Of a DNA stretch of 60,656 nt, positions 919 through 57,391 are shown one piece after another. Origin of the DNA: a virus (lineage: Duplodnaviria > Caudoviricetes); IMG/VR virus record IMGVR_UViG_3300021197_000990, positions 1-60,656 of that record; one strand, given 5' to 3'. The notes below the pieces were generated by a model that was not told where the DNA came from, did not search any database, and was given only the letters and a program-made list of their open reading frames with translations. Numbering within the stretch: the first letter of the stretch is position 1; every line of letters starts with the position of its first letter. A program made the position numbers and the translations under genes.

Positions 919-1950
919 ATGGATAAATCAATTAAATACTGTTTCTCTGACACTAAAGAACCATTGTTCTGGTGTGACATCAAAGGTGAAACATGGTGGG
1001 GTTACATTGACGGTACTGTAGAGTTTCACGCAATGAGTGATGCTGACGCCGATGTTCTCTATGGACAAGGTAAAATTGTAGAAGAAGACAAAGCTTATGG
1101 AGACATGTCAGTTATGTTCGGAGATATAAACCTCAAAAACATCGGTTTACTCGGTGGTCCAATCGATGCTAACATCAAAGCCTCTTATGGAGCTGATGGT
1201 GATAAGGAAGACAAAGCAGAAGTTGGTATCATTCGTCTACCAAAAGACTATGATGCCACGTTAGTAAACACCGATATACTTCCTGATGATCTTGCAGCTA
1301 AACTAGAAATAGCACTAGCCAAAGAAGATCGTCCGTCATGCATATCTATATTGTTCGATGGTGTGCCAGGTACAGGTAAAACTATGGCCGCAGCTTACAT
1401 TGCAGACAAGATGGGTCGTAAGCTTAAATCATATAAGCTAGGTGAACTGCTTGGCAAGTATGTAGGTCAAACTGAGAAAGCTCTAATGAAAGCGTTCGAT
1501 GATGCAGAGAAAGAAGGTCACATCTTACACCTAGATGAGATCGACTCTATTGCTAGCGACCGTGGTAAAGCTGATCGTTCATACGAAGTAAAAGCTGTTA
1601 ACGCTCTATTGCAAAGTATGGATACGTTCGAAGGTATATTCATTGCAACTACGAACTCTAAGGATGGATTAGACAGTGCTATTAAACGTCGATTCCTACT
1701 TAAGAAAGAGTTCAAGAATGTTACAGGTACACAAGCTGACAAACTAGCTAAGATGTTCTTTAAGCGTAAAGCTCCTAAGAACTTACCAGATGACATTCTA
1801 GCTCCTGCAGACTTTAACCTAGTTAAACACTCATTGCTATTCATAGAAGATGACAAGATCAATAAGAAGTTCATCGAAGAGCAATTACTAGAAGAAGCTG
1901 CAGAACGTAATGACACTAAGAATAAAGCTAACAAAATAGGGTTCTTATAA
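919..1950 (+). CDS. AAA+ ATPase (classic clade) ending in KIGFL
   Basis: Walker A GVPGTGKT, pore loop KYVG, Walker B LHLDEID, sensor TTN, Arg finger IKRRF. Confidence 0.93.
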   Translation: MDKSIKYCFSDTKEPLFWCDIKGETWWGYIDGTVEFHAMSDADADVLYGQGKIVEEDKAYGDMSVMFGDINLKNIGLLGGPIDANIKASYGADGDKEDKAEVGIIRLPKDYDATLVNTDILPDDLAAKLEIALAKEDRPSCISILFDGVPGTGKTMAAAYIADKMGRKLKSYKLGELLGKYVGQTEKALMKAFDDAEKEGHILHLDEIDSIASDRGKADRSYEVKAVNALLQSMDTFEGIFIATTNSKDGLDSAIKRRFLLKKEFKNVTGTQADKLAKMFFKRKAPKNLPDDILAPADFNLVKHSLLFIEDDKINKKFIEEQLLEEAAERNDTKNKANKIGFL

Positions 1951-6725: not shown

Positions 6726-6745
6726 TGGCCAGCTAAAGCTGTCCA
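6726..6745 (+). promoter_or_regulatory. Motif C copy
   Basis: TGGCCAGCTAAAGCTGTCCA. Confidence 0.6.
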
Positions 6746-13077: not shown

Positions 13078-13123
13078 CAATCGGAGTGGAGTAATCCTGC
13101 TCCACTAACTATTGGATAATACT

Positions 13124-14791
13124 ATGAAAAAGCAATATGAAACTTCACCATTCGTTAAGACTCACGTTCCATGCTTAGATCAGACTGATTGCTGTTCATC
13201 TGACGGCAGATCTATTAGGCAAGATGGTAGCAGCTTTTGCTACGTCTGTTCAACAAACTTTAAATCAAATCAAGAGGACACTTCATTGGAGACTATCAAT
13301 GTTAAACCAACCACCAATACTTTTCGTGCTGAGTCAGTCGACACTATTCGTAATTATAGTAGTTATCCTATTAGTACTCGTGGCATTAGCCAAGAAGTAG
13401 TAGATCATTTCAACGTCAAGATGTCTGTAGATACTGAAGGCAGACCTGAAGCACACTACTATCCGTTTACTATTAACGGTCAGATTGCTGCATACAAAGT
13501 ACGTAAGTTACCTAAAGAGTTCTCTACTGTAGGTCAGTTCAAAGATGCAGAACTATTTGGCCAAGCACAATGTGCCGGTGGTCGTACTCTAGTAATCACA
13601 GAGGGTGAGTTAGATGCTATGGCTGTAGCTCAAGCTTACTTAGAGAAATATAGTAAGTTCTACCCTGTTGTATCGTTACCTAACGGGGTACAGTCTGTTA
13701 AGTCTTTACTAACTAACCGAGATTTCGTACGTAAGTTCGATACTGTAGTTCTAATGTTTGACATGGATGAAGCAGGTCAAGAGGCTGTAAGCAATGCTGC
13801 TAAGATCATAGGCATTGGTCGTGTTAAAGTCGCTAAGCTGAAGACTAAAGATCCATGTGATGAGCTTAACGAACATGGCTATGAGTCTATACTTAGAGCT
13901 ATATGGGATGCAACCACATGGTCACCAGCAGGTGTACTTATGGGTACAACTATATGGGATAAGTATATCGAACGTTGTAATGTAGAATCTGTTCCATACC
14001 CAGAGTGTCTATCAGGTCTTAACGATAAGATCGAAGGTATTCGTCAGGGTGAGATTACATTGTTCACGTCAGGTACAGGTAGTGGTAAGTCAACAGTAAT
14101 CAAAGAGATTATATTCGAGCTACTAGAAAAGACTGATGAGAAGATAGGCTTGATATCACTAGAAGAATCTATTGGTGATACAGCTGAGAAGTTTATACAA
14201 ATGCAAATGCGTCGTCCGTTACATGGACATCCACCAGCTACTGAAGAAGATCAACGTGAAGCTTTCGATAAGGTATTCGGTGATGAACGTCTAGTTCTAT
14301 TAGATCACCAAGGTTCTGTATCAGATGATTCACTTATGGATAAGATCGAGTACATGGCATTGATGGGTTGTAAGTACTTAGTACTAGATCACATCACAAT
14401 TGCTGTGTCAGAAGGTAACGATGGATTAACTGGTAACGAAGCTGTCGATAAGCTGATGTCAGATTTACTGAAATTAGTTAAGCAACATAACGTATGGTTA
14501 GGATTAATCTCTCACTTACGTAAAGCGATGGGTGGTAAGTCATTCGAGGAAGGTGCATTGCCGTCTATCGATGACATCAAGGGTTCTGGTTCTATTAAGC
14601 AGATCTCATTCGACATCATTGCATTTGCTCGTAACCTAGTTGCAGAAGAAGAATATGAACGTAATACAATTAAACTACGAGTGCTTAAGTCACGATTCAC
14701 TGGTAAGACTGGTGAAGCAGGTGCAGCTGTCTATGACACTGAGACTACAAGACTAGGCAAAGGTTGTACAGGATTTGACTTGGAGATGTAA
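13124..14791 (+). CDS. Primase-helicase (T7 gp4-like)
   Basis: Cys zinc-binding N-terminus, TOPRIM ITEGELDA and FDMDEAG, Walker A SGTGSGKS, LDHI, SHLRK, KSRFTG; alternative TTG start at 13112. Confidence 0.96.
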   Translation: MKKQYETSPFVKTHVPCLDQTDCCSSDGRSIRQDGSSFCYVCSTNFKSNQEDTSLETINVKPTTNTFRAESVDTIRNYSSYPISTRGISQEVVDHFNVKMSVDTEGRPEAHYYPFTINGQIAAYKVRKLPKEFSTVGQFKDAELFGQAQCAGGRTLVITEGELDAMAVAQAYLEKYSKFYPVVSLPNGVQSVKSLLTNRDFVRKFDTVVLMFDMDEAGQEAVSNAAKIIGIGRVKVAKLKTKDPCDELNEHGYESILRAIWDATTWSPAGVLMGTTIWDKYIERCNVESVPYPECLSGLNDKIEGIRQGEITLFTSGTGSGKSTVIKEIIFELLEKTDEKIGLISLEESIGDTAEKFIQMQMRRPLHGHPPATEEDQREAFDKVFGDERLVLLDHQGSVSDDSLMDKIEYMALMGCKYLVLDHITIAVSEGNDGLTGNEAVDKLMSDLLKLVKQHNVWLGLISHLRKAMGGKSFEEGALPSIDDIKGSGSIKQISFDIIAFARNLVAEEEYERNTIKLRVLKSRFTGKTGEAGAAVYDTETTRLGKGCTGFDLEM

Positions 14792-14796
14792 TACAA

Positions 14797-16902
14797 ATGA
14801 AATGGCATGAAAACGTAGAGCTCTATCTTAGGGCTCAACTTACCAATGGTAAACGTTTCAGACATGAAGGACTAAACATACTAAAAGACAATGCAGCTGT
14901 CTGCTACCCTAATTTAGATGGGTACATTCAGTCTGCTCATCATAGTATATCTACGATATGTAAGCTAGAACCATGTGGCACTAAAGCTACTGGTGGGTTA
15001 ACTAATATCAGCTCTACAATAGGCAAAGATATTATGGCAACCATTGGCTCTACACATCAACAGGTAGACTGGAAGAAGTACCTACAACTAGGTGATCTAA
15101 TGATCGAAGCTTTCTTACAGTCAGGGTTACTGAGAATTATTACACCTGAAGCTAGATCTAGAGAACCTATTCTAGTAGAGATAAATGAAGGCTGGCCAAC
15201 AGATTTACCTGAGGCCTTAATCAAGCGAACACTAAGAGGTACGTTTGCTAACAAGCCTAAAGATATCACAGGTCCAACTCAGCTAATCAACTATGATCCA
15301 CTAGGACTAACATTCCATAAGAAGATTATTAAGAGATGGGATGAAAACTTAGATGGCCTTGTCGCTAATATGTTAGATACTCCGTGGATGAAAGCAGTTA
15401 ACAAACTTCAACAAACGCCATGGTCTATTAACAGTGATGTTCTTGAAGCAGTTGTGAGTCAACCTGAAAAGTTCTTCAGCATAGACTCTAAGACTAAAGA
15501 GAACTTCTCTAAGAAGATAGACTATGAATACACTGTCAGCAAAGCAAACATACTAGATGGCACAGTCTTTTATACTGCTGCAGACTTAGACTATAGAGGT
15601 CGTATATACTTCGTTGAGTCATACCTTAACTTCCAAGGTTCAGACTTAGCACGTGGACTTCTAACCTTCGGAGAGAGCAAGATCGTAACGCCTAATGGCT
15701 TACGCTGGCTCAAGATACATTGTGCTTCCTCATTCAACCAGAGTTATTCTATCGATGATATTCCTAGCTGGTGTTCAAGAGATTATGCATCTCACCTACG
15801 AGCAGAAGGCTTAGATAACATATCAGTAGATAAGATGACACTGAACGATCGTGAAGCTTGGTGTGATAACAATATGGAGTTAATAAATGAAACGGTCAGA
15901 AATGGAACGGTGCAAGACTGCGAGAAGCCTGTATGCTTCCTTGCTGCTGCTATTGAGCTTGTCAATTATCATGCTGCCAGTGGTGATTATTATAGTAGCT
16001 TGCCTATACCTGTGGACGGTAGCAACAATGGTTGGCAACACCTTGGTGCAATTTCTAAAGACATTGAGACGGGTAAACTAGTAGGTCTAGTACCAGTAGA
16101 TATTCAGAATGATTTCTACGTACAGACTGCTAAACGATTAATCGAGATTACAAAGGACGAAGAACGTAAGAGTATTCTAGATAGTATGCCTATGAAAGCT
16201 ATACGTAAAGGTATTAGTAAGCGTGGGAGTATGACTAGAGCTTACTCTGCAGGTGCTCAGAAGATAGCAGAGAATATGTTTCAAGACTGTAAGTCTGCTG
16301 GCTATACATTGAAGTATGGTATTACTGAAGAGCATTGTAAAGGATTTGCTAGAGACTTAGTTAAGGCTATCAGTGATGTATGCCCAGGTCCTTTAAGTAC
16401 TATGAAGTTCTTACAAGAGCTAGCAGCTGATAAGCTAAACGAAGGTTACAACTACTTAACATGGACTACACCATCAGGTTTTAAAGTTGTCTATGAGAAC
16501 TACCACATGGATCAGGTAAAGTATGCTAACCGTATTAAAGGTGTAGGCAATGTCCAAGACAAAGTCAAGCACGTACTTAAGATGTCATCACCTTGTCCTG
16601 ATAGACGAGGCTTTATGTGTGGCATTAGTCCTAACTTTGTGCACAGTCAGGATGCTGCTCACATGCAATCAGTAATCGATAGATTTGATGGACTGTTCGG
16701 TGCAGTTCACGATTCATTCAGTACTCATGCTTCGCAAGTAGATGAGCTACTAACTATAACCAAAGACGTATTCATTGAGATGTATGATCATGATAACTAC
16801 TTCGATGACATATGCTACAGACTTAAAGCTGAAGCTATGCAACCACATCGTGGTAACTTATCGATCAAAGATGTTAAAGCATCAGACTACTTCTTTGCAT
16901 AA
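14797..16902 (+). CDS. Single-subunit (T7-superfamily) RNA polymerase, compact, 701 aa
   Basis: DYRGRIY, motif A VDGSNNGWQH, motif B RKGISKRGSMTRAYS, PNFVHSQDA, motif C VHDSF. Confidence 0.95.
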   Translation: MKWHENVELYLRAQLTNGKRFRHEGLNILKDNAAVCYPNLDGYIQSAHHSISTICKLEPCGTKATGGLTNISSTIGKDIMATIGSTHQQVDWKKYLQLGDLMIEAFLQSGLLRIITPEARSREPILVEINEGWPTDLPEALIKRTLRGTFANKPKDITGPTQLINYDPLGLTFHKKIIKRWDENLDGLVANMLDTPWMKAVNKLQQTPWSINSDVLEAVVSQPEKFFSIDSKTKENFSKKIDYEYTVSKANILDGTVFYTAADLDYRGRIYFVESYLNFQGSDLARGLLTFGESKIVTPNGLRWLKIHCASSFNQSYSIDDIPSWCSRDYASHLRAEGLDNISVDKMTLNDREAWCDNNMELINETVRNGTVQDCEKPVCFLAAAIELVNYHAASGDYYSSLPIPVDGSNNGWQHLGAISKDIETGKLVGLVPVDIQNDFYVQTAKRLIEITKDEERKSILDSMPMKAIRKGISKRGSMTRAYSAGAQKIAENMFQDCKSAGYTLKYGITEEHCKGFARDLVKAISDVCPGPLSTMKFLQELAADKLNEGYNYLTWTTPSGFKVVYENYHMDQVKYANRIKGVGNVQDKVKHVLKMSSPCPDRRGFMCGISPNFVHSQDAAHMQSVIDRFDGLFGAVHDSFSTHASQVDELLTITKDVFIEMYDHDNYFDDICYRLKAEAMQPHRGNLSIKDVKASDYFFA

Positions 16903-17172: not shown

Positions 17173-17235
17173 ATAAAAAAAAACCCTACTACGGGATTCC
17201 TTACGGAGTCCTATAGTAGGGTATATTTTTTTTTT
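17173..17235. terminator. Bidirectional intrinsic terminator between the two arms
   Basis: A-run, long hairpin CCCTACTA...TCC-TTAC-GGA...TAGTAGGG, then T-run, between convergent genes. Confidence 0.92.
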
Positions 17236-17365
17236 ACTTCTCTTTGTCTTTGATATTATCTTCTAACTTAATTTCTTTAGAGATATCGTCATCAGACTTA
17301 CGAGTTAGTAGGAAGCCGATTAACAACAGGCCACCACCTAATATTAGTAATGTTTCATAGTTCAT
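17234..17365 (-). CDS. Small membrane-anchored protein, 43 aa (not in ORF track)
   Basis: AAGGAG RBS; MNYETLLILGGGLLLIGFLL followed by a charged tail. Confidence 0.65.
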   Translation of the reverse strand: MNYETLLILGGGLLLIGFLLTRKSDDDISKEIKLEDNIKDKEK

Positions 17366-17376: not shown

Positions 17377-20300
17377 TTAGTGAGCGTAGTATTGATACAC
17401 TGGAACACCTAATCTCTTAAGTTCTTTATCCAGCTCTTTCTTCTTAGCTTCAGTTTGTTTAATCATTACAGACAAACGACTCTGAACATTCATATCTTTT
17501 AATATGTATCTGGTTGCGTCAACAATCTGTTTACCAGTCAATGCAGTATCTCTATCTATAGCATGTACAGGAATACCTACCTTGCGCAGACCATCAATCA
17601 TATGCTTAGCTTTATTCTTAGCTAAGTCATTGAGAGTATCAGGATCTGCATCAGCAGGAAGGTTACCAGTTTGTTTTATAAACTGCTTCAAGTTCCTAGG
17701 TACTAGAGATCCATACTCATTTAGTTCTTGCTTCAACAAGTAGTCTAACATAGGGAAGTCTGATACTAAGTACTCTTTCTTAGGATCTAAAGCTTTCATA
17801 GCTTTTGCGATAATATCCATTGACTTCGCATTAGAGTTATAAGCTTGTTCCAAGTAACTCCACTTCATGTTGATGTTGTACCAGTTCTTATTAACTTCTT
17901 CTAGTGCTACATCATATCCTCGAGCATCAACTTTAAATGCATCATAGATAGTATGAACATAAGGCTTACCACCAGAAGCTGCCTTCATTCTCTCCCAAGA
18001 CTTACCAGTTACTAGTGAAGCAACTGTTGCTGCATCAGTAGCCTGTATAGGACCTGGTACTGCACCACCCATAGCTTTACCACCAGTGCGCTCATCACGA
18101 GCAGCAGCTGCAGTCTTCTTAGCAGGTGGGTAAATGTCAGTAGTACGCTTAACTTGCTTACCATCTTCATTCACGCGATACGAGATACGCTGTTCAGGTT
18201 CAACGTTAGCCTCAATGACTGTACCACCAAAGTGTAGCGGCATGCCATGAGGACCTCTGATTGTGAACGGAATATCTGCGAAAGCTGCAAGCGCAGCAGA
18301 AGATTTCATAAGTGCTCTAGACTTAATTGCATCTGCAGATAAAACGCTAACAACACCAGCTGAGTATGTAGAAAGCAATACATCAGATAGATTATTAAGA
18401 TCGTTGCTAGGACTTTCTAATACAGACTTAACACCTTCATAAGCTACGATGTAGTTAGCATTACTGTCAAGCTGTGGATACTCTAGTGCCATCTCATATA
18501 GTAAAGCAGCAGCTTCATCTATTGCAGGACCCATGCTAGAAATGTCCAGGCCGTAACCAAATGTCATAGTAGACCACTTGTTCAGGTCTCTGTGAGAAAA
18601 CACCTTACGCGCAACCTCATAGATCTTATCGACACCGACTTCATCAAAGTAAGAGGTGAACATCAGACCACCTGTTTGATCTTTAATAGTATCAAGCAAT
18701 GTATCTTGTAGCTTATCACGTAGATCACCATCATCTAACAAGTGTCTACCTTGATTACGGATAACACCAGTAGCTAAAGCAACTTCAATAGATCCCATCT
18801 GAATACCATTAGCTGCTAGACCATTAGTCTTACCATCGAAGTAAGCGTTAAAGTAAGAGTCGTACTTACCGTGCTTCTCCATAGCTGCAGTGTATTTAGA
18901 GAAGTCTATAAGACCATCTATAAAGTGTGGACCATCTTCGCCTTTAGCTTGTATCTCACGGATCAAGTCAGCATCAGCTTCAGGATCTAGTTGTAACCCT
19001 GTGAACTGAGGGAAGTTAGGATCTGTCAATGGAATACCTTGAGCAATAGCATCTGCTACAGCATCAAGTTGACTATCAGTCATACCTTGTTCTACTAACG
19101 ATCTTAATCTACGGCCCCATTTAAGTAGCTGAGGTGTTGCATTTTGTAATGCTCGCTCACGTGCTTCAGGTAGTAGCATATCACCAGCTTGATCTTTGCC
19201 TCTATAACTAACTCCAGATACGTTCTTACTAACTAACATCATCGCATACATCTGTCGTAAGTTTTTATCGATACGGCTACCCTTCCTAGCTGTCGAAGGT
19301 TCAGCCGCTCTTGTAACGAAGCGTACTGGTTTAGAGGTAGTAGCATCAAATGTAGTTTGCTGTGGAGATAATCTTCCGTTATAAGCCATAGTATAGTAAG
19401 TGAAGTAGTTCAGTGAACCACGTTCTGCTGCTATAGCTCTAGTCTCTTGAGCAACTTTATTTTGCACTGCTTGCATATTCTCTTGTGCTACATATCCATC
19501 ATCAGGATCAGATGCTTTCTCTTTAGCTATAAAGCCTTGCATCTTCTTAGGTCCCATGTTATGGATATCACCGAACACACCTGTTAATTCATTTTGAACA
19601 CCAGCAAGAACAGGCAATGCTGTCATGTAGTAGATCTTCTCACGCTGCTTGTCAACGACGTTAGCGATACTAGATAAGTTACGCTTAGCTTCTTTAAGCA
19701 TTAGAGAGTCTTTAGGTTTGATCTGACCAGACATCTCCTTAGAGTAGTTCTTTGCTTCACCTTTAGCATGCATAAGGCCAGGCGATTTAGCCGGTCTCAC
19801 TTGCTGCTTAGGGAATAACTTCTTACGAGCTTGAGCAGAAGCCGTCATTACGTCAGCACCTTCAGGAGTAAGAACAAAGTAAGTCTGTTGACCACTTGCT
19901 TGCTCACGATTGAGTAGATCTTTATTGTTAGCTGCGTATAACTCTTTAGCTGCATCACCAAGTAACGTAGCTTCTTCTATAGAAAGACGATCATTAGTTT
20001 CTTGAGCACCCATTAAACGTTGGTACTCACGATCTAACTCAAGACCAAGTTGAGCATTGCCTTTCAACTTAGGAAAAGCAGAACCTTCTTCTATTGGGAA
20101 GTCATCGGGATCAATACCTTCTTTCTTAAGTGCTTGCACAAGTACTCGTTTAGAAGACTCAAAGTTTTCAGCCATCCAGTTTTCTGTAACGACTGACATC
20201 ATACCAATAAAGTCAGGGTTGTATTGAGCTTTACCTACGTTGTCTTGCACAGCTCCAACTTTACGGAGCACAACAGGTAAACCATCTACTGTGTTAGTAC

Positions 20301-20730
20301 CTAAGAATGAAGACATACCAACTTCTTCGTTAGTTACATTCTGAATTAGGTTATTAGCACGACGGAACATACCACCTAGCCCATCACTAGTGTCAACTTT
20401 CTTATTACCTTTAGGTTTGTAAGCTCCTAAGTCTTGTTGAACACGCTGCTTAATGCTAGGTCTCTGTTGATTATCTATCTCAGCTTGAAGCTCAGGTGTC
20501 ACTGTCATATCAGCAGGTTTTGGATCTTGCACTTGACGTTGATTGATTGCGTCAACACCAGCATCTACTGATCCAACTAATTCGTCTATCGATGCCATAA
20601 GGTCTGGATCGACGCCATCGCTAGCGCCTTCCATTGTTGGCATATCAGACTGAAGTTCTTCAACAGCTGTCTCAGATAGTGTTTGGTTATTACCACCACC
20701 TTGTGCTGTAGATATATTGAACTTTGCCAT
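17377..20730 (-). CDS. Second single-subunit RNA polymerase, probably virion-encapsidated (vRNAP)
   Basis: AYNGRL (DxxGR-like), motif A FDGKTNGL, motif B RDLNKWSTMTFGYG, PGPIQATDA, motif C HTIYDAF in correct order; last large gene of the ejection-protein cluster. Confidence 0.87.
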   Translation of the reverse strand: MAKFNISTAQGGGNNQTLSETAVEELQSDMPTMEGASDGVDPDLMASIDELVGSVDAGVDAINQRQVQDPKPADMTVTPELQAEIDNQQRPSIKQRVQQDLGAYKPKGNKKVDTSDGLGGMFRRANNLIQNVTNEEVGMSSFLGTNTVDGLPVVLRKVGAVQDNVGKAQYNPDFIGMMSVVTENWMAENFESSKRVLVQALKKEGIDPDDFPIEEGSAFPKLKGNAQLGLELDREYQRLMGAQETNDRLSIEEATLLGDAAKELYAANNKDLLNREQASGQQTYFVLTPEGADVMTASAQARKKLFPKQQVRPAKSPGLMHAKGEAKNYSKEMSGQIKPKDSLMLKEAKRNLSSIANVVDKQREKIYYMTALPVLAGVQNELTGVFGDIHNMGPKKMQGFIAKEKASDPDDGYVAQENMQAVQNKVAQETRAIAAERGSLNYFTYYTMAYNGRLSPQQTTFDATTSKPVRFVTRAAEPSTARKGSRIDKNLRQMYAMMLVSKNVSGVSYRGKDQAGDMLLPEARERALQNATPQLLKWGRRLRSLVEQGMTDSQLDAVADAIAQGIPLTDPNFPQFTGLQLDPEADADLIREIQAKGEDGPHFIDGLIDFSKYTAAMEKHGKYDSYFNAYFDGKTNGLAANGIQMGSIEVALATGVIRNQGRHLLDDGDLRDKLQDTLLDTIKDQTGGLMFTSYFDEVGVDKIYEVARKVFSHRDLNKWSTMTFGYGLDISSMGPAIDEAAALLYEMALEYPQLDSNANYIVAYEGVKSVLESPSNDLNNLSDVLLSTYSAGVVSVLSADAIKSRALMKSSAALAAFADIPFTIRGPHGMPLHFGGTVIEANVEPEQRISYRVNEDGKQVKRTTDIYPPAKKTAAAARDERTGGKAMGGAVPGPIQATDAATVASLVTGKSWERMKAASGGKPYVHTIYDAFKVDARGYDVALEEVNKNWYNINMKWSYLEQAYNSNAKSMDIIAKAMKALDPKKEYLVSDFPMLDYLLKQELNEYGSLVPRNLKQFIKQTGNLPADADPDTLNDLAKNKAKHMIDGLRKVGIPVHAIDRDTALTGKQIVDATRYILKDMNVQSRLSVMIKQTEAKKKELDKELKRLGVPVYQYYAH

Positions 20731-23700
20731 TAACTTCCTCCTTTAAAATCCCATGCGTCTAGGGCTTTGTTGAACCCTTGTGTCGGGATTGAGAATAACT
20801 TAGCTGTGCCTTTGCCTAATCCTTCAGTATCACCTTTAAGTAAATCAATACCTGTACCAACTGCCATACCAGCTTTACTGATAGCAGGTGACTGACCACT
20901 TATCTCGTTGTATAACCATTCACCAGTGTTCTTAGATCTAGATTCATAGATCGGAGCAATAGTAGATGTGATACGTTCCATAGTTCCCATGAGACCTGAT
21001 GATTGAACACCACGTCTAATAAGTTCTGCGTTATCAAGATAAGGAGTTGACTCACCATATTTGAGTAAGTCTTTAAGGTATTGAGATGCGAATCCCATCA
21101 TGATCATTCCGGTCATAACAGCAAATGCATTATACTTCATAGCAGGTGAACCACGCTTAATGTACTGTTGCCAGAACTTAGGTATGTGGTTTGCTGTGAA
21201 TGTAGACATGAAACCTTGGAACTGAGTAAACAATGCGAACCGTGGATCTTGATAGAACAACGGACGGTTACCAGTTTGCGGGTTTGCAATAGCTTCGTTT
21301 ATAAAATTGTATAATGGATCTCTAATCATATCAGTCAATACACCAGTCTGCTCAGGAGATAGTGTCTCAGGATCTGCTGCTAGCAATTCCTGAAGTTCTT
21401 TTAGTTTACCTGGAGCAACAGTCATGCCTATATTTCTAAGCATCTCTTTGGCTTCCTGGACTTCATTAGTCACAGGTTGACCTTCGTTTTCTAGTATTGT
21501 ATTAATATGATTAAGCATAAAGTCAGCGCCAAAGCTAGCTCTAACTGCTCGAGTCCAATCAGTGTACTGGGTAAGACCAGTCATTCTGAAGTATAGTTTA
21601 ATTAAGTTCTGTTTAGCTGGTATGATTTCACTAACACCAACCTTACTAGCTGTACTAATATCCGGATCAAACATACCTACATTATCGGCTTGCTGATAAG
21701 AATAGTTGTTCATAAGCTTAGCTGCTTCATACTCATCGATATCAAAGTCCTCAGACTTAATTATCTCATGTAGTTCTTTAGCTAGCTGTTGACCTCTAGA
21801 CTTAACACTGTTTTTATCCTTGCCAAATATCTGTTCAGACGTAAGACCTTTCATAGTGATCATCGCCTCTGGTAGAGATGACAATGCCGCTAATGATAGA
21901 GATGTTACAGTAGTAAAGAAGATAAAGTTCTTTTGAACCTCAGCAGCTTTCTTACCTTCATCAGTAGTAGGTCTATGGTAGTTACCAGAATCAGCTTGCA
22001 AATAGTTATACATCTGCGCACCAATGTAATCTGCTTGATCTTTAGGCATGCCTTCAGCTTCAGCTTCACGTAGTAACTCTTCGATTACTTTACCGTTGTC
22101 ACCGACATACTGCTCATGAGCTTGATATCTTGCAGCTGACTTAGCAGCAGTGATAGCGTTGGCCATGATATCTTGTTCCATAAAGTCTTGGAACTCAGCA
22201 CGTTCTGATAGACCTAACGTTCTCTTCTTGTGAGCTGTCGGAACTGTACCTCTCTCGACAACATCGAATGCTTCATCAAGAGTGTTAACCATATCACTGC
22301 CTAGAATTGCTTCTGTGATCTGCACAGCTTGATCTCTTGAAATATTGCCACCATCAATACGAGTTAATCGCTCAATGAATGATGCTTTATTCTTAGAGAT
22401 TACAGACTTATTAAAACCTTTAAACTTAAGTAAGTAGTCTTCAATGTAACCTAGATCTGGATTAAACTTAGTCTGATCTGTATGCATCTCTTTACCAACT
22501 TTCTGTAAGTCTTTAACTAGACTAAGTATAAGTTGTTTTTGAGGTGTAGACTCAGGCACTAGATCTGGGTTAAACTTACCGTTCTCCATTGCATTACTAA
22601 TTACTTTATATATTTTACTACCTGGATCGCTGAAGTTGGTAAACTCACTACCACCTTGACCAAATAGCTTATAGAACTTCTCAGCTTTAGGTAAACGGTT
22701 GATATACTTTGTAGCCACATGGTGCCTATAGTTTTCAAACGCTGCACCTTCATACACTTTCTGTATACCAGCACCAAACATACCTGCTAGCTTTCTGATA
22801 GATCTATATTTAGATTGTTTATCGATAGGTAGAGTATGATGCAGATGTCCTTTAAACACCTTGCCAACCTTAGTCATAGCATTTAACGCTTGATCAACTA
22901 AAGTTCTACCTTGTTTATTTCTTTCGTTAGCTTCAAATCTTGCTTTAAGACCTGTCTTGGTTTCATCTTCCCAAAACCCTGTGCCTCTGTTGTCAGCTTT
23001 GCGTCTAGCATCTTCAGCTATCTCAAGAGTTGTAGGAACCATCTCTTCTGAACCGTAGAAACTTGCTTCTTCACGGAACATAGCTTCAGCTTCTGATCTG
23101 TTCTTAAGATCTGCTGGTGCTAATCTCCAAGCTACATCTGCCCACTGGCCTTTATCGTATACAGTAGCTGCGCCACTCATACCTGCACCAAGTGAACCAC
23201 CTGCAATTGCTGCACCAATAGCTCGTTCTTTAAGATCTTCCCAGTCCCAACCTGAGCCATCGAAGTTTGCACCTGCGTAAGCTATAGATTCTTGAAGTGC
23301 TTCCGTTACACCTTCACCCATGCCACCTTGGATAGCATTAAGAGCAAGGTCGTTGAATGTTTTCTTAGCTGTCAACTGAGATGCAGCAAGCTTAGCACTA
23401 TCTTTCGCAAGACCAGCAACCTGTCTACGAGTTAGACCTGCTAGTTTAGCTTCAGCCATATTCTTAGATATGCCTTCAGCGTTCATAAGTTTAGCCACAC
23501 CTTGTTCAAAGAACTCTTTAGGAGTGTTACCAGTGAACTTAGTAGCTAGCTTTAAACCAACCATATCTAATGCACCTTGAACTACACCAGAAGCTATAGC
23601 TGCGGCTGCTGATTTGTTGTCACCAGCTTGTTCATTATATACTTGACCAGCATAAATAGATGCAGGCACTGTAAGAGATGCACCACCAGTAGGAGCTGCT

Positions 23701-24596
23701 GCCGCTACTGAAGCCATTGTGATAGCCATGTATGGCAAAGACATTGCTAAGTTGTTTCCTAAGAACTCCATAGCTGTGCCAAATGATTTGACATCTTTAT
23801 AGTCAGTTAGTATTTCTGCGTTCTCCATGATGCGACCACGTATTCTAGCGGCACCATGTTCACCCCAGTCAGCTACATCTTCAAGACCTGTTGAGTCACC
23901 GAACATGTGAGCTATACCATAACCAGCTTCTTGTACACCACGCATTGCAGTATTCCAAGAGTCGGTTAAAGGGCTTAACGCTTTGTTATTTAAATCACGA
24001 TCTGTACTTCTAAATTGTACATTACTACTGAACATATCTTTATTGTATGCATATTCTTCTTCATTAGTAGCTGCACGCTTAAAGTTTAACCGATCATAAC
24101 CTTCAGACATCATAGACTCTAGTAGAGCCTGTCCGCCTGCTTTTAATTCTTCATCACCGTCTTTGACGATCTGATCACCAAACAGTTGAGCTACATTGTA
24201 GGCATCAATCTGGTTTTGTGTAGATGCTGGATGAAGGTCTGATACTCCAGTCTCTATGAGACGAGTAGCAAAGTCCTCACCTTTAGCATTCAATAGTTGA
24301 ACTGTTCCACGACCATGAGCAGCTTCTTGATCTAAGACTTTAACATCTGTAAAGCCTTGTTCTTTAGCTAGCTTCATTAGGTCGATAGAGGCAGCGCCAC
24401 CAGCAGTTCCCTGCTTAAAGTTAACGCTACCATCTTCGTTCTTGCCTAATATTTTAGCGATCTCTGGAGCATCAAATCCGGCGACACGGTATGTCTTACC
24501 TTGCTTATCTCGTAATGTATCTAAATCTACAAACGAGTAGTCACCATTTAATGTTGAGCTATCCATGACGGATAGTAAATCTGGATCGATGTCCAT
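20730..24596 (-). CDS. Large internal virion/ejection protein with N-terminal SNase-like domain
   Basis: VDLDTL...YRVAGFDAPE...HGR...LIETG; remainder helical with Ala/Gly-rich hydrophobic stretches. Confidence 0.7.
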   Translation of the reverse strand: MDIDPDLLSVMDSSTLNGDYSFVDLDTLRDKQGKTYRVAGFDAPEIAKILGKNEDGSVNFKQGTAGGAASIDLMKLAKEQGFTDVKVLDQEAAHGRGTVQLLNAKGEDFATRLIETGVSDLHPASTQNQIDAYNVAQLFGDQIVKDGDEELKAGGQALLESMMSEGYDRLNFKRAATNEEEYAYNKDMFSSNVQFRSTDRDLNNKALSPLTDSWNTAMRGVQEAGYGIAHMFGDSTGLEDVADWGEHGAARIRGRIMENAEILTDYKDVKSFGTAMEFLGNNLAMSLPYMAITMASVAAAAPTGGASLTVPASIYAGQVYNEQAGDNKSAAAAIASGVVQGALDMVGLKLATKFTGNTPKEFFEQGVAKLMNAEGISKNMAEAKLAGLTRRQVAGLAKDSAKLAASQLTAKKTFNDLALNAIQGGMGEGVTEALQESIAYAGANFDGSGWDWEDLKERAIGAAIAGGSLGAGMSGAATVYDKGQWADVAWRLAPADLKNRSEAEAMFREEASFYGSEEMVPTTLEIAEDARRKADNRGTGFWEDETKTGLKARFEANERNKQGRTLVDQALNAMTKVGKVFKGHLHHTLPIDKQSKYRSIRKLAGMFGAGIQKVYEGAAFENYRHHVATKYINRLPKAEKFYKLFGQGGSEFTNFSDPGSKIYKVISNAMENGKFNPDLVPESTPQKQLILSLVKDLQKVGKEMHTDQTKFNPDLGYIEDYLLKFKGFNKSVISKNKASFIERLTRIDGGNISRDQAVQITEAILGSDMVNTLDEAFDVVERGTVPTAHKKRTLGLSERAEFQDFMEQDIMANAITAAKSAARYQAHEQYVGDNGKVIEELLREAEAEGMPKDQADYIGAQMYNYLQADSGNYHRPTTDEGKKAAEVQKNFIFFTTVTSLSLAALSSLPEAMITMKGLTSEQIFGKDKNSVKSRGQQLAKELHEIIKSEDFDIDEYEAAKLMNNYSYQQADNVGMFDPDISTASKVGVSEIIPAKQNLIKLYFRMTGLTQYTDWTRAVRASFGADFMLNHINTILENEGQPVTNEVQEAKEMLRNIGMTVAPGKLKELQELLAADPETLSPEQTGVLTDMIRDPLYNFINEAIANPQTGNRPLFYQDPRFALFTQFQGFMSTFTANHIPKFWQQYIKRGSPAMKYNAFAVMTGMIMMGFASQYLKDLLKYGESTPYLDNAELIRRGVQSSGLMGTMERITSTIAPIYESRSKNTGEWLYNEISGQSPAISKAGMAVGTGIDLLKGDTEGLGKGTAKLFSIPTQGFNKALDAWDFKGGS

Positions 24597-24605
24597 AAAA
24601 ATCTC

Positions 24606-26315
24606 CTATTTGTTTTCTCTTCGGTCAACACCTAGCTTATCTGCTACGAAAACATAGAAACCACTTTCGTGATCGTTAGCCATCGCATCATACTTATCGC
24701 GAACCTCTTGATCAAGCCCAGTCCATTCTTGGATCTTCTTGTTCATAAACAGGTTAGCAATATCAGACACGTTGCCTTCTACTTTATTAAGTTTCATAAC
24801 ATCAGCAACTTTGTTATTGAGCAAAGCCATCTTGCCTGCATCAACCCATTGAGGGTTTTCAGGTGTAGAACCTTTAGCTTCAAATAACTCAGGTGTACCA
24901 GTTCTAGTACGAATAACTAGCTGATTAAGGAACGGACGAATGTCTCTTGGACGTTTGCCTGAGGCCTTAGCATAGTTACGCATATCAGCATAAGCTTGGT
25001 CTAGCAGTACACCAGCTTCATTAGGATCGATGTTATTGGCTGCTGCCCATTGACCTACATGATGTGCTGCGGTTCTAGGATTAAGATCCGTAAATGTACG
25101 TTTATCTTCACCTTCACCGAATGTACCAAACTGTTTCTGCAAAGACTTAAATGTATCTGCAGCTACTGATTGAGCTTTGTATTGACGTTCATTATATTCT
25201 TTAGAACCTTTAACTCGGTAAGGATCTGTCTCATATTGTTCAGGATTAATTGGTTTACCACCAGCAGTGACATATACTTTATTACCAGTTTTATCTTGAG
25301 CAACATAAGCTTTAATTTGCTTACCAGTCTTTTTGTCTTGAACCAACGTTGGGTTAGTTCGATCTATCTTAACTGTACTCTTAGTAATTGGTATTAAGTC
25401 TTTAGCATCACGTGACTGTTTGTAAGCTTCTATGCTGTCTGAAGTGTATTGCTTTTCTTCATGTAGCTTTTGTACTTTCTGCTTATGACCTAACTGTTGT
25501 CCTAAGTAACGCTTACCAGTCCAACGTAAAGAACCACCATGAGAGTAACCAAGAGCTCTACTACCTAAATACATGATTGCTGCTTCAGCTAGATCCTCTT
25601 CATTAAGTAAACCTTGAGCTGCATTACCTAGTGCTGTTAGAACTTTCTGGAACATACTAGGTTTTTCTTGAGCTAGATTCTCACCAGCATCCTTTTGATC
25701 TTCATCATCTACTTGATCAATGGCTGCTTCATCACTTACAGACTTCTCATCGTTTACTGTTTGTGCTAAGACATTTATTGCTTTCTGCTCTGGTTCTTCT
25801 GTCACAGGAACTTCATCAGTCTTAGGAACAACACCATTATATCGATCTCTTGAGTCACTTGTGCTGATCACACCACCAGTTAACTCTGTGATATCATCAG
25901 CTAAGTTCTCTGTAAATTGAGGTTTAAACTTCTCACGACCATCACCTACTTCAACATCTGCAAACTCATCTATATCATTATATAAAGGAACTTGCTGTTG
26001 AGGTCTAGGAACAGAGTTGGAGGTAGGTTGAAACGGCACACGACCATCACCAACATTCTCTTGTGCAAACTCATCTATATCATTATAAGTAGTCTGACTT
26101 ACAGGTTGAGCTTGTTGCTGTGGAACACCAGCGTTACTAGCCATATACTCTAGACCTTGCTGCTGCATCTGACCAACTGGCATCGTCATCAACTCCGGCA
26201 CTTGAGGCTGTGGCACTTGAGCTTGCTGAGGATCTAACATCTTTGGAATGTCAAACTCCTGAGTAATGGTGTTACCATCTTTATCTTTGACAGTCATTTT
26301 CTTTACTTGATTCAT
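24606..26315 (-). CDS. Putative internal virion protein
   Basis: Position; Q/P-rich N-terminus with duplicated YNDIDEFA...VGDGR. Confidence 0.6.
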   Translation of the reverse strand: MNQVKKMTVKDKDGNTITQEFDIPKMLDPQQAQVPQPQVPELMTMPVGQMQQQGLEYMASNAGVPQQQAQPVSQTTYNDIDEFAQENVGDGRVPFQPTSNSVPRPQQQVPLYNDIDEFADVEVGDGREKFKPQFTENLADDITELTGGVISTSDSRDRYNGVVPKTDEVPVTEEPEQKAINVLAQTVNDEKSVSDEAAIDQVDDEDQKDAGENLAQEKPSMFQKVLTALGNAAQGLLNEEDLAEAAIMYLGSRALGYSHGGSLRWTGKRYLGQQLGHKQKVQKLHEEKQYTSDSIEAYKQSRDAKDLIPITKSTVKIDRTNPTLVQDKKTGKQIKAYVAQDKTGNKVYVTAGGKPINPEQYETDPYRVKGSKEYNERQYKAQSVAADTFKSLQKQFGTFGEGEDKRTFTDLNPRTAAHHVGQWAAANNIDPNEAGVLLDQAYADMRNYAKASGKRPRDIRPFLNQLVIRTRTGTPELFEAKGSTPENPQWVDAGKMALLNNKVADVMKLNKVEGNVSDIANLFMNKKIQEWTGLDQEVRDKYDAMANDHESGFYVFVADKLGVDRRENK

Positions 26316-26324
26316 AACTATCTC

Positions 26325-27047
26325 CTATTTCATTTTGCTATCAAAGTAGCGATTAATTTTTATTCCACCAATCTCTTGATCTTCAGGTCTAACTAGCTCA
26401 TCACCTGCCGCTGTCATATCTATAGTTCTTATTTCAGGAACTTCAGCGCCGTACGGATCGCCTATGCTTGAACCATCACCCAATCCTGATTGACCATTAA
26501 CAGGTCCATCTAATCCTGGCATAGTTACCATGTTTCCACGATCTATTGCATTTATGATATCACCACCTGTTGCACTCGCTTCTGTTGTAGTGTTTCCTCC
26601 ACCAATGACTATAGGATTAACTATAGGTGGTGTTGTAGGAGGAGCAGTCACAACTGGAGGTGCTGCTGGAGGCGGAGTCGGTGTAGCTGGAGGTGTATAA
26701 ACTGGAGCCGGTGGTTGTTGAACCACTGGTACCTCGTTTTGAGGTGGACTCACAGGATCTTGTGCTGGAACTTGTGGCTTAGGATTTCTTAACCTAAAGC
26801 CAGGCTGAAAGTCAGGTATTGGATCTGCATACGGATCATCTGCTACTGGAGCTACTGGAGCTTGCTCAGCTGTCGTTGGAGGAGTTACACCAATATCCGG
26901 TTGAGGCATTGGCATACCTGTTGGAGGCATCTGCGTCTCTGGGATAGTAACTCCTGGTGTCATACCTACGTTACCAAAAGATACTTGAGGTTGTGGAATA
27001 TTGTAGACTTGTGTATACTGTCTAGACCAATCTGGATTCCAAGTCAT
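26325..27047 (-). CDS. Proline-rich, probably disordered virion protein
   Basis: ORF with AAGGAG RBS. Confidence 0.65.
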   Translation of the reverse strand: MTWNPDWSRQYTQVYNIPQPQVSFGNVGMTPGVTIPETQMPPTGMPMPQPDIGVTPPTTAEQAPVAPVADDPYADPIPDFQPGFRLRNPKPQVPAQDPVSPPQNEVPVVQQPPAPVYTPPATPTPPPAAPPVVTAPPTTPPIVNPIVIGGGNTTTEASATGGDIINAIDRGNMVTMPGLDGPVNGQSGLGDGSSIGDPYGAEVPEIRTIDMTAAGDELVRPEDQEIGGIKINRYFDSKMK

Positions 27048-27056
27048 AGTATCTCC

Positions 27057-27590
27057 TTAAATGCCTAAGACACCTTTAAATAGTGGGTTATTTTTAAAGC
27101 CATTAAACTGAGTTCCATTAGTGTTAGCCATCTGCTGAACTGTTAATGGTCCTGCTAATGGATTCACTGTGTTGCTTTGTGGAGTAATGTTAGATAGACC
27201 TTCAACTGAAGCTTGCATAGCTGGTGCTGCAGCCTTTGGAGTAACTGCATCAGCTGCAACAGAGCTTGCTGTTAGTTGCTTAGGAACATCAGGCATAGTT
27301 AGTGGATCTGTTGTAAGTGCTTTCTCAGCACCACCAGACATCATACCAGTTAGACCTTCTGTAGCTTTACCCATAAGAGTAGAACCTGCAGCTGAAGCCA
27401 ACGTGCTCTTCAAGTCTACGGTACCTTTACCACCTAGCTGTCCACCTAATGATGCACCAATCTGTCCACCTAATGGACCACCAACAGCAGTGCCAAGTGC
27501 ACCACCTGCTATAGTTCCTAGCATGCCTAGTAGTGGATCACCACCACCACCTTGTTGTATTAAAGCTGGGTTAATTTTTGCGACTGCCAT
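27057..27590 (-). CDS. Gly-rich putative ejection (pilot) protein
   Basis: Glycine-zipper GxxxG segment; coupled to the upstream gene. Confidence 0.6.
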   Translation of the reverse strand: MAVAKINPALIQQGGGGDPLLGMLGTIAGGALGTAVGGPLGGQIGASLGGQLGGKGTVDLKSTLASAAGSTLMGKATEGLTGMMSGGAEKALTTDPLTMPDVPKQLTASSVAADAVTPKAAAPAMQASVEGLSNITPQSNTVNPLAGPLTVQQMANTNGTQFNGFKNNPLFKGVLGI

Positions 27591-28207
27591 TATTTACCAC
27601 CTCCGCCTTGAGAAGTTTGAGTCTGACCTTGTGGTGCAGAACCTAAATAACCAAAGAAACGTTCAGCAGCTTTAGCTTCGCTATCAAGACCTTCTTGTTC
27701 AAGACCACGTTTAGCTTGCTCAGCGTTAGTTAAGATACCTGCAGCACGTTGTTTAGCTTGTTGATCAGCAGCAGATAATTCCATACCGCGATCTAACACA
27801 GCAGCTTCACGAGCACGATCAGCTCTTGCAGAACCTAAAGCACCTTGTTGTGCGCCTTGAATTTGACCTTCAGTGTTTCGCATAGCATTCACTAAGTTCT
27901 CAGCACCTAAGCCTTCTTGCATTGTTTGTTGTGCCATGTTACCAGTTTGGTCTAATGCATCTTGCATACCAGCAGTATCTGCTACTTGACCTAGTTTACC
28001 TGATTCATACAGACGACGAACATCGCCTAACACAGGAGTAACATGACGTTTAATATCTGGATCAATTGATGTTGATGTGGTTTGTTGTCCACCACCACCG
28101 CCACCGTTGGCGATATTCTTATTTACTACTCGAGCAACTTCTGCTGGCAAGTAGTCCAGACCAATTGATAAGTCTGTTTGTTCAAATGAGTTACCATACT
28201 TAGACAT
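27590..28207 (-). CDS. Putative ejection/internal virion protein
   Basis: GGGGG-QQTTST, GALGSARA, Q/A-rich helices. Confidence 0.6.
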   Translation of the reverse strand: MSKYGNSFEQTDLSIGLDYLPAEVARVVNKNIANGGGGGGQQTTSTSIDPDIKRHVTPVLGDVRRLYESGKLGQVADTAGMQDALDQTGNMAQQTMQEGLGAENLVNAMRNTEGQIQGAQQGALGSARADRAREAAVLDRGMELSAADQQAKQRAAGILTNAEQAKRGLEQEGLDSEAKAAERFFGYLGSAPQGQTQTSQGGGGK

Positions 28208-28910: not shown

Positions 28911-28925
28911 CCCATAAGGGTTACA
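28911..28925 (-). promoter_or_regulatory. Putative late phage-RNAP promoter TGTAACCCTTATGGG
   Basis: Four intergenic copies; ends in GGG like T7/T3 promoters. Confidence 0.75.
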
Positions 28926-55060: not shown

Positions 55061-55075
55061 CCCATAAGGGTTACA
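55061..55075 (-). promoter_or_regulatory. Putative late promoter TGTAACCCTTATGGG
   Basis: Exact copy of 28911-28925. Confidence 0.75.
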
Positions 55076-56748: not shown

Positions 56749-56885
56749 TATGAGTCCTCATTCTGTATAGACAAATAATACTTAATGGTGAAGGGGGTAA
56801 AAGCCCTTTGGTATACCTATATTATTTTTATATGTCTGCTATTTGCTAATATAATTCAGGTGGCCCCAGGGTTCCTTAGAGTTCA

Positions 56886-56899
56886 CCATAAGGGTTACA
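56886..56899 (-). promoter_or_regulatory. Putative late promoter upstream of terL
   Basis: TGTAACCCTTATGG(TG) on the minus strand. Confidence 0.7.
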
Positions 56900-57376
56900 T
56901 CAGGGATTATGCTATGTGGAGTAGACTATCAGTGACTGTGAGATGCTGTGGGGAGACTATTAGGAGACTATGAGATCTTAAGGGTGAAGGGGGTAGCTTA
57001 TGTTAGTCTAAGCTCAGGGCAGCTATGTCTCAGTCAACCTATAAAGTAGGTAATAATATATAGTACCCTTAATAATCCCACGGGCCCCCTCAACTCTCCC
57101 CTCACTCCCTCCCCTAATCCTCTCCCTCCCAGTGATTTACTCCGGGATACTACCAGTCACCGTGGGTATTATAAGGTCTTAGGGTTGATCTGAGGGATCC
57201 TGAGGGTGTATCGTGAGTAGGGTATAGGAGCTTAGAGTGCTTTAGCGGTGATCTTGCGGTGGGATTAGGACTTGGAGGTGGCTGTGAGTGGGCCGTGGGG
57301 CAATGGCTTATATCAGATCCTAAAGTTCCCTACAGTTTCTTGTAGTCTACCTACATTGTCTACTATTTAACCTTCT

Positions 57377-57391
57377 TGTAACCCTTATGGG
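57377..57391 (+). promoter_or_regulatory. Same motif in the opposite orientation, pointing into the early region
   Basis: TGTAACCCTTATGGG on the plus strand. Confidence 0.65.

Follow-up and report, generated by a model that had tools for sequence, protein, structure and literature searches.

Can a podovirus outside the N4-like phages carry its own RNA polymerase (RNAP) into the host cell as a small, separate protein? This question is raised by an open reading frame (ORF) of IMG/VR virus record IMGVR_UViG_3300021197_000990 (Duplodnaviria; Caudoviricetes), a stretch of 60,656 nucleotides (nt) that was analysed whole and is called the window below. An earlier note, made from the letters alone, had read positions 17377 to 20730 as a natural stand-alone counterpart of the N4 virion RNAP (vRNAP), injected with the DNA and so far undescribed. 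The ORF is real and encodes 1117 amino acids (aa); it lies on the minus strand, which the note had left unsaid, and the plus-strand frame over the same positions is full of stops.

17377..20730, minus strand: P0001, 1117 aa, a highly divergent single-subunit RNAP and candidate virion (ejected) RNAP

Judging by its predicted structure, P0001 is almost certainly a single-subunit DNA-dependent RNA polymerase of the T7/N4 superfamily. We further propose, at a probability of roughly 0.6, that it is a stand-alone early polymerase, packaged in the virion and ejected into the cell, where it would have an early role.

Fold and catalytic motifs

The AlphaFold2 model of P0001, built without templates on an alignment of 56 family members, has a predicted local distance difference test score (pLDDT) of 85.4 and a predicted template-modelling score (pTM) of 0.85, and drops below pLDDT 50 only at residues 1-75, 102-104, 106-114 and 197-206. 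Compared with the PDB by Foldseek, it returned single-subunit RNAPs in all of the best 50 rows listed, with T7 RNAP at E = 4.2e-16 and the N4 mini-vRNAP, the comparison that had been proposed as a check, at 2.5e-14; the yeast and human mitochondrial RNAPs (mtRNAPs) are found there too. Pairwise alignment with VIA-align gave Z 26.7 (650 residues aligned, root-mean-square deviation (rmsd) 12.3) and Z 26.5 (560 aligned, rmsd 5.0) against T7 RNAP, whose last residue the alignment reaches, Z 24.7 against yeast mtRNAP (701 aligned), and Z 22.9 against the N4 mini-vRNAP (rmsd 6.8), where the alignment is the longest, at 750 of ~1095 residues. Indeed, residues 92-1117 of the model run co-linear, end to end, with residues 47-1063 of the chain of the N4 mini-vRNAP, a domain that spans residues 998-2103 of N4 gp50 (PDB 2PO4, 3C2P, 3C3L, 3C46 and 9PNQ), and the likeness in size pointed out before (1117 vs 1106 aa) holds. 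A search of BFVD with the same model brought up T7-like RNAPs together with pieces of N4-like virion RNAPs. As modelled, P0001 is equidistant from the T7-type, mitochondrial and N4-type RNAPs.

The catalytic motifs on which the first assignment had been built each occur once in P0001, in the order claimed:

NGR: residues 451-453, codons 19372-19380
DGKTNG: residues 632-637, codons 18820-18837
RxxxKxxxMTFGYG (RDLNKWSTMTFGYG): residues 714-727, codons 18550-18591
IYDAF: residues 928-932, codons 17935-17949

Across the 56 homologues, which are 36-59% identical to P0001, G452 and R453, D632, G633, K634, N636 and G637, R714, K718, T721, M722, F724, Y726 and G727, and H926, Y929, D930 and A931 are all invariant; the motif columns therefore belong to a conserved core of the family and are not a chance pattern. 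Q1113, Y1114 and H1117 at the C-terminus, where P0001 ends in QYYAH, are likewise invariant. In the model, D632 closes the strand 628-633, R714 to Y726 lie on the helix 714-725, and Y929-D930 sit in the turn joining strands 925-928 and 931-935, a placement that we take to be the palm/O-helix layout (motifs A, B and C) of T7-type polymerases, the motif residues of P0001 being presumed, by motif, to be equivalent to those of T7 RNAP. The fourth residue after K718 in motif B is M722; Met at this place is presumably the RNAP state, shared with T7 RNAP, Phe being the residue of DNA polymerase I. Fold and invariant motifs agree on the T7/N4 superfamily, as the earlier note had held: a palm-fingers-thumb fold that superposes on T7 RNAP comes together with the Asp residues of motifs A and C, motif B and the GR motif. 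A hairpin of the model at residues 847-866 is a candidate for the specificity loop. From its invariant catalytic residues, we predict that P0001 is an active polymerase.

An orphan family by sequence

P0001 has diverged beyond the reach of sequence methods. Scans of Pfam (E <= 0.01) and PHROGs (E <= 0.001) gave no family; phmmer and the 56-sequence profile, run against all PDB sequences, gave chance-level rows only and no N4 chains; and tblastn against 50,697 phage records gave no match. With its fold match and no match to PF00940 or PHROGs, P0001 is a superfamily member by structure that stands outside the curated sequence family. The divergence extends to the single-subunit polymerase encoded next to it, here RNAP2:

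14797-16902, plus strand: RNAP2, 701 aa, of the canonical short T7-like/'N4-like RNA polymerase' family (PF00940, E = 1.1e-54)
13112-14791, plus strand: T7-type primase-helicase

Neither BLASTP nor hhalign found anything significant between P0001 and RNAP2: a non-significant BLASTP segment (E = 0.73) aligned the motif-A regions of the two, and the P0001 family profile, set by hhalign against a 40-sequence alignment of the RNAP2 family, scored a probability of 0.5%.

As for the P0001 family itself, a word-indexed search yielded 272 proteins, and a full HMMER scan of 1.84 billion representatives yielded 248 clusters at 50% identity, of which 152 reach E <= 1e-30; members P0002 to P0004 are 62-66% identical. 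The full-length homologues listed are mostly ~1100-1300 aa long, extend up to 1537 aa and carry no Pfam domain; a search for fused homologues among proteins of 1956-5000 aa, which is weak as evidence, found none. P0001 homologues are present at 52 loci of IMG/VR, and within these loci they are 25-41% identical, compared with 36-59% for RNAP2 and 44-79% for the primase-helicase. Such faster change, as these identities suggest it, is what virion and ejection proteins typically show. The sole match to the family in 185,579 species genomes lies on a 20.7-kb contig (L065) of a Dehalococcoidia metagenome-assembled genome (MAG), most likely a phage contig binned into it, and we draw no inference on the host from it.

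A polymerase without cysteine

P0001 has no cysteine in 1117 aa, where 8.5 would be expected at the frequency of the proteome (chance ~2e-4), and the six consecutive proteins encoded at 17377-28207 have none in 3596 aa. Elsewhere in the genome, RNAP2 has 14 cysteines, the DNA polymerase 12, the primase-helicase 11 and the portal 10. The same holds among relatives: cysteine is wholly absent from 55/56 homologues of P0001, from 21/24 homologues of p1288 and from 16/19 analogues of p569 (the two proteins encoded just upstream), and from 0/40 homologues of RNAP2, in which the median is 11 and the range 7-14. Of two polymerases with the same fold, then, one is cysteine-rich and the other cysteine-free, and we consider this the strongest argument that the two work in different compartments on the way to their templates. 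The N4 vRNAP is also free of cysteine, a trait attributed to its passage through the tail and the oxidising periplasm (PMC3821669).

The last large gene of the ejection operon

Read as a circle, the genome falls into three parts:

56749-58090: non-coding control region, 1.3 kb
~58090 across the record junction to 17172, plus strand: early/middle operon, with the DNA polymerase, the T7-type primase-helicase and the 701-aa RNAP at its 3' end
From the terminase gene (55081-56748) down to 17234, minus strand: late operon

The gene of RNAP2 is the last large gene of the early/middle operon and converges on that of P0001. The statement that P0001 ends the ejection-protein cluster was nearly right: no other large gene comes after it in the late operon, where only a 43-aa ORF follows. 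The long inverted repeat between the convergent operons looks, from its sequence, like a bidirectional terminator; with a loop of more than 8 nt, it escaped a consensus terminator scan.

17173-17235: inverted repeat A9 - CCCTACTA...TAGTAGGG - T10, between the convergent operons
17234-17365, minus strand: 43-aa ORF, predicted membrane protein with a hydrophobic N-terminal stretch, final ORF of the late operon
20730..24596, minus strand: p1288, 1288 aa, all-helical and cysteine-free, candidate T7 gp16-type internal core/ejection protein
24606..26315, minus strand: p569, cysteine-free, upstream of p1288, candidate gp15-type ejection protein by position only
26325-27047, minus strand: p240, cysteine-free
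27057-27590, minus strand: p177, cysteine-free, weak PHROG match to 'tail associated lysin' (3.5e-4)
27590-28207, minus strand: p205, cysteine-free, making up the start of the cysteine-free block together with p177 and p240

The TAA stop of p1288 overlaps the ATG of P0001 (TAATG), with a strong Shine-Dalgarno sequence, AAGGAGG, just upstream. p1288 itself matches phrog_6958 (virion structural protein) at 1.1e-27. Its model is entirely helical and of low confidence (pLDDT 60.5); when it was compared by Foldseek with 350,542 chains, the PhiM1 pre-infection ejectosome (E = 0.048) ranked first and the T7 core (E = 0.065) second. By VIA, the scores are Z 7.1 for the PhiM1 ejectosome (286 residues aligned) and then 5.2, 4.8 and 4.0 for T7-type core proteins; all told, 224-286 residues are co-linear with the four T7-type core entries, at Z scores below the caution line of the tool. 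The resemblance of the modelled p1288 to a gp16-type core protein is suggestive. Against the PDB, phmmer and profile searches with p1288 found nothing, and a protein-atlas search returned unnamed clusters. A Pfam scan of 24 family members gave weak SNase matches in two of them (best E 0.002). The N-terminal ~100 aa read D-x-D-T ... R-x-x-G-x-D-A-P-E in the family consensus, which we take to be a staphylococcal-nuclease-like signature, and an atlas neighbour is named TNase-like.

This arrangement is conserved. The convergent RNAP2 and primase-helicase genes adjoin the P0001 homologue in 52/52 IMG/VR loci, and a p1288 homologue lies directly upstream in 40/52, the other 12 having at most 621 nt of upstream sequence. 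In the relatives (24 loci), the three proteins before the terminator measure 593-1367 aa (the p569 analogues, counted only at loci that reach far enough upstream), 1270-1474 aa and 1116-1342 aa. Around P0001, sigma-70-like sites number 5, against 9.4 expected from shuffled controls, and the nearest promoter-like element upstream of the cysteine-free block is the site at 28911-28925, of the third class described below.

The capsid protein has its best cultured match in Roseobacter phage CRP-7, above many Pseudomonas and Escherichia podovirus records. CRP-7 is the nearest cultured phage and shares with the window the capsid protein (52.9% identity), the primase (49%), RNAP2 (34%) and the C-terminus of p1288. 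At the position syntenic with P0001, CRP-7 (L001) encodes gp33, of 1235 aa (17859-21566, minus strand).

Repeated elements of the control region and intergenic spaces

If P0001 is ejected to transcribe early genes, where would it start? Three families of repeated non-coding motifs, which had been put forward as three promoter classes, are indeed present:

57655-57686, 57700-57731, 57768-57799 and 57813-57844, plus strand: class 1, four identical 32-nt elements, candidate P0001 hairpin promoters
57888-57906, 529-547 (duplicate 60626-60644), 6727-6745 and 59612-59630, plus strand: class 2, GTCCASSTRAASSTGTCCA, upstream of plus-strand gene groups
57377-57391, plus strand: class 3, TGTAACCCTTATGGG, pointing into the early region
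56885-56899, minus strand: class 3, TGTAACCCTTATGGG, upstream of terL
55061-55075, minus strand: class 3, TGTAACCCTTATGGG, between terL and portal
28911-28925, minus strand: class 3, TGTAACCCTTATGGG, upstream of the cysteine-free block

The class 1 elements sit just upstream of the first early genes, and their core has four matches where 0.05 would be expected. Each contains GTTGC-TTC-GCAAC, so that the template strand of rightward transcription reads GTTGC-GAA-GCAAC: a hairpin with a 5-bp stem and a 3-nt GAA loop in a GC-rich heptamer, with three further pairs possible. As template-strand DNA it folds at -6.2 kcal/mol (z -3.1). The early promoters of N4 have a stem of 5-7 bp and a 3-nt loop in a GC-rich heptamer centred at -11; their loop residues are -10G, -11G and -12A, of which -10G and -12A form a sheared pair, making a G-N-A triloop (PMC4496689). 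By this analogy, the G-A-A loop of class 1 fits the G-N-A scheme, which in N4 is G-G-A.

Class 2 has five matches, including the end duplicate, at four distinct places, against 0.01 expected. Its central palindrome is kept through paired changes (CAGC/GCTG vs CACG/CGTG), the hairpins are weak (z -0.9 to -3.3), and class 2 may represent either another kind of promoter or the site of a regulator. In an exact scan of IMG/VR it appeared in 23 contigs of very different sizes, one match each, from which we draw nothing; one relative has a class-2-like palindrome twice, and another a different palindrome with a 9-bp stem, also twice.

Class 3 is without single-strand structure (z -0.04), and motifs of its flavour (CCTTATAG-like) occupy the same three kinds of place in 2/4 relatives tested. 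It fits a duplex T7-type promoter, and is a candidate for one recognised by RNAP2, the better conserved of the two polymerases. The early region has 16 sigma-70-like sites, where 13.1 would be expected, and is not enriched in them.

Short CTGTGAG/CTGTGGG iterons cluster in control regions, both in the window (57469-57530) and in two relatives, L063 (70-244, ten 12-nt steps) and L061 (32-361, five copies); unlike the hairpin repeats, they keep their kind from genome to genome, and are thus a candidate origin or packaging signal. Positions 56950-57300 are skewed in G/C and free of genes, and runs such as CCCTC/GGGAG blocks flank the divergent class 3 sites on both sides; the stretch holds no listed ORF of at least 60 aa, and the nearest listed frame (56785-56973) ends at its left edge.

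A proposed role and its rivals

Taken together, the scheme that we favour would run as follows. P0001 would be a late product, the last large one that the structural operon yields, alongside the gp14/15/16-type core proteins. Once ejected, it would begin to transcribe the plus-strand early genes at a time when no phage gene has yet been expressed; its starting points would probably be the four class 1 hairpins of the 1.3-kb control region, and perhaps class 2 as well. Single-stranded DNA-binding proteins (SSBs) assist transcription in N4, and the early Enc34-type SSB (59682-60212) may assist P0001 here. Later, transcription would pass to RNAP2, encoded at the far end of the early/middle operon; starting at the TGTAACCCTTATGGG sites, RNAP2 would read the late operon, and with it P0001, the last large gene there, for the next round. 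The gene of RNAP2 is, moreover, at the distal end of the very operon that RNAP2 would otherwise have to start. The claim of injection thus gains indirect support from gene position, from coupling to a gp16-like neighbour and from the family-wide absence of cysteine. We infer packaging from this position, the conserved arrangement, the neighbours and the missing cysteines; ejection, independence from the host RNAP and the assignment of motifs to enzymes are proposals as well.

Several observations weigh against this scheme. None of the five relatives whose control regions were read has the class 1 element there, an exact scan of IMG/VR for its core gave 0 matches elsewhere, and TTC-loop hairpins were found in only 2/5 relatives, two in each. 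Between polymerases only 25-41% identical, a turnover of promoters is plausible; alternatively, the repeats may be an origin or a site of packaging. The scan for a sigma-70 consensus was crude. The gp16-like matches of p1288 are suggestive only, given Z scores below the caution line and a pLDDT of 60.5. As to CRP-7, gp33 has no similarity to P0001 by BLASTP or hhalign, and a homologue of P0001 was found neither by hmmsearch of all its long frames (best E 0.44) nor by motif regular expressions; the enzyme is therefore not indispensable to this genome architecture, and gp33 is either a gene replacement or a second, different cargo protein of the ejection operon. Finally, the Z scores place P0001 no closer to N4 than to T7, and its invariant free C-terminus (QYYAH) is T7-like rather than N4-like; a free C-terminus is a trait of T7 RNAP.

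Another explanation is that P0001, an active enzyme made late, is not packaged and has a cytoplasmic task, such as late or very late transcription, the priming of replication or activation of an origin, or the making of an RNA required for packaging. Fold and catalytic motifs are silent on location, CRP-7 manages without the protein, the free and invariant C-terminus is as in the cytoplasmic T7 enzyme, and the hairpin repeats could be an origin primed by an RNAP. However, this would leave the total loss of cysteine unexplained, when RNAP2 keeps 7-14 cysteines in 40/40 homologues; P0001 is coupled translationally to a virion-type protein and stands at the end of the structural operon in all relatives; and the end of the late transcript would be an unexpected place for the gene of a polymerase on which late transcription depends. 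We consider a purely cytoplasmic enzyme unlikely.

Could P0001 be packaged and ejected chiefly to serve in the ejectosome and pull the genome in by transcribing it, as the host RNAP does for T7, with early expression left to the host RNAP? Genome entry is transcription-driven in both T7 and N4 (PMC13434306, PMC4496689), P0001 shares an operon with the gp16-like p1288, and a pulling engine would be well served by having four promoter-like elements in tandem where the early region has one of its ends. Sigma-70-like sites are not in excess in the early region, however, and we regard a host-dependent programme of this kind as quite improbable; since pulling by transcription also yields early mRNA, it shades into the early role proposed above. 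That P0001 is a structural or ejection protein of polymerase descent which no longer makes RNA might be argued from its extreme divergence and the lack of any Pfam, PHROG or profile match, but is very hard to believe when 56 homologues show no exception at either catalytic Asp, at the R, K and Y of motif B, in the GR motif or at the C-terminal residues, for invariance of catalytic residues amid 36-59% identity is a signature of selection on catalysis.

Returning to the ejected early polymerase, we may extend the idea, tentatively, to a widespread marine-type podovirus lineage of ~55-75 kb that would combine a two-RNAP, host-independent programme with an unfused precursor of N4 gp50. An ejected, cysteine-free RNAP would read GNA-triloop hairpins, and a short T7/N4-RNAPII-like RNAP would read duplex late promoters of the CCCTTATGGG type; the separate gp16-like protein and polymerase would represent the state before fusion into the 3500-aa protein of N4. 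As a joint claim this is rather doubtful.

The genome record

The 60,656 bases are a complete IMG/VR virus entry, with a CheckV completeness of 100%. IMG/VR labels the record linear. Positions 1-566 match 60091-60656 at ~99% identity, with small indels (one copy more or less of a 17-nt AGGAGCGTTAGGAGCAC-type repeat, and a T-run of different length). The overlap cuts the SSB gene and is therefore not read as a physical terminal repeat; it looks like the circular or concatemer assembly of a slightly heterogeneous population. No tRNAs were found in the window.

Some further genes are worth recording:

29780-37483, minus strand: 2567-aa protein, mostly ~85-aa tandem repeats, probably a long fibre or adhesin
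59682-60212, plus strand: early gene, Enc34-type ssDNA-binding protein (PF10991, 2.8e-7)
919-1950, plus strand: early gene, AAA ATPase (PF00004, 1e-27)
58868-59596, plus strand: early gene, weak ClpP/NfeD-like protease matches, below Pfam cut-offs

The repeats of the 2567-aa protein have a periodicity of 255-258 nt, in at least 14 copies at 60-80% DNA identity; the protein also has a PKD/Ig-like Pfam match near its C-terminus and, unlike the ejection block, contains cysteine (14 residues). CRP-7 has a MoxR-family ATPase at a place similar to that of the AAA ATPase. Early genes share an unusual extended ribosome-binding context, CCAAGAGGA(N8-10)ATG, at 58072-58092, 58476-58496 and 59660-59682.

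Novelty and significance

Is the system undescribed, as was first suggested? In part: we found no published description of the P0001 family or lineage, but split N4-type vRNAPs have already been reported. A survey of hidden N4-like viruses discarded all matches below 2500 aa, which could include this family (PMC10654107), and the CRP-7 paper, in the part available to us, mentions only the T7-like ORF30 as an RNAP. What is probably new here is that a podovirus lineage other than N4 has a single-subunit RNAP which stands alone, is an orphan by sequence and is probably ejected.

To our knowledge, delivery of a single-subunit RNAP by the virion has until now marked out a single family, the N4-like Schitoviridae, in which the enzyme lies inside a 3500-aa polypeptide. 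Here, an enzyme with the same fold and about the size of the mini-vRNAP domain is predicted as a separate protein, in a different podovirus lineage that is common in metagenomes. If it is packaged, the strategy of ejecting a polymerase would be older or more widespread than thought, and the lineage would offer a natural experiment on how the giant N4 polymerase came together, as its gp16-like part has stayed separate from the polymerase. A packaged P0001 would also provide a compact, cysteine-free and possibly hairpin-specific RNAP for biochemistry and for tools of ssDNA-templated transcription. Should the two-RNAP programme and the unfused precursor both prove true, the P0001 family would be a missing link between the T7-type and N4-type strategies of infection. 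More generally, enzymes to which only structure prediction gives access can lie hidden among the conserved 'hypothetical' giants of ejection operons.

Comparison with known systems

Delivery of an RNAP with the DNA is also a feature of crAss-like and phiKZ-type jumbo phages, some of which are independent of the host RNAP. Their virion RNAPs, however, belong to the two-barrel, multisubunit-type lineage and not to the T7/Pol-I-like right-hand fold.

T7 RNAP is the enzyme with the highest structural scores against P0001, and shares with it the order of the motifs and an invariant free C-terminus. P0001 differs in being ~230 aa longer and cysteine-free, in its place within a structural operon, and in having no match to PF00940 or by profile-profile comparison. 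RNAPs of the T7 type act in the cytoplasm, as early or middle enzymes, and their promoters are duplex. The likeness to T7 extends to its gp14-gp15-gp16 series: three proteins of rising size (240, 569 and 1288 aa) end the structural module, and p1288 is all-helical with its best, albeit weak, structural matches (Z 4.0-7.1) among gp16-type core proteins. On the other hand, p1288 has an SNase-like N-terminal motif and nothing that we could match to the N-terminus of gp16, and a fourth protein, the polymerase, is appended.

A separate protein for the RNAP domain is not unprecedented in principle, since split N4-type vRNAPs of two or three ORFs are reported in Alteromonas phage AltAD45-P1 (ORF126/127) and Shigella phage pSb-1 (gp101-103) (PMC10654107, PMC3821669). 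There too, as far as these sources go, the RNAP domain is an ORF of its own beside large virion proteins, and a 1453-aa pSb-1 protein is among the BFVD structural matches of P0001. Those proteins are, however, recognisable gp50 homologues by BLAST and by hidden Markov models, in N4-like genomes of 70-104 kb; the RNAP part of AltAD45-P1 lies within a large ORF of 2481 aa (PMC3821669), and one of the split cases was suspected by later authors to be an artefact of gene calling (PMC10654107). The P0001 family, in contrast, is a sequence orphan, with the RNAP last in the gene order and beside an unsplit RNAP2.

This leaves N4 itself. P0001 has the single-subunit RNAP fold, a late gene beside ejection proteins and no cysteine, as does the N4 vRNAP, and candidate hairpin promoters with a 3-nt G-N-A loop lie near the start of the early region. 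Whilst the vRNAPs of Schitoviridae reference genomes are giant polypeptides of 2842-3820 aa (PMC10654107), P0001 is not part of a 3500-aa polypeptide, is without the N-terminal ejection and C-terminal encapsidation domains of gp50, and bears no detectable sequence similarity to it. Of the N4 hallmark ExDGxxxG (PMC10654107), P0001 keeps DGxxxG, within YFDGKTNG, and not the E. The genome is of ~60 kb, with a T7-type primase-helicase and a CRP-7-like capsid protein. The Schitoviridae are described as lacking a gp16 analogue, the vRNAP filling its slot in the ejection operon (PMC13434306), whereas the gp16-like p1288 and the polymerase P0001 are separate neighbours here. The earlier view that this is not a typical N4-like phage is borne out by the absence of a giant polypeptide, and no fused homologue of at least 1956 aa came up in the weak search described above. 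By size, gp50 homology and full motif, then, P0001 is not an N4 vRNAP, and by structure, gene context and cysteine content it is like one; in function, the N4 virion RNAP is the closest system to the one that we propose.

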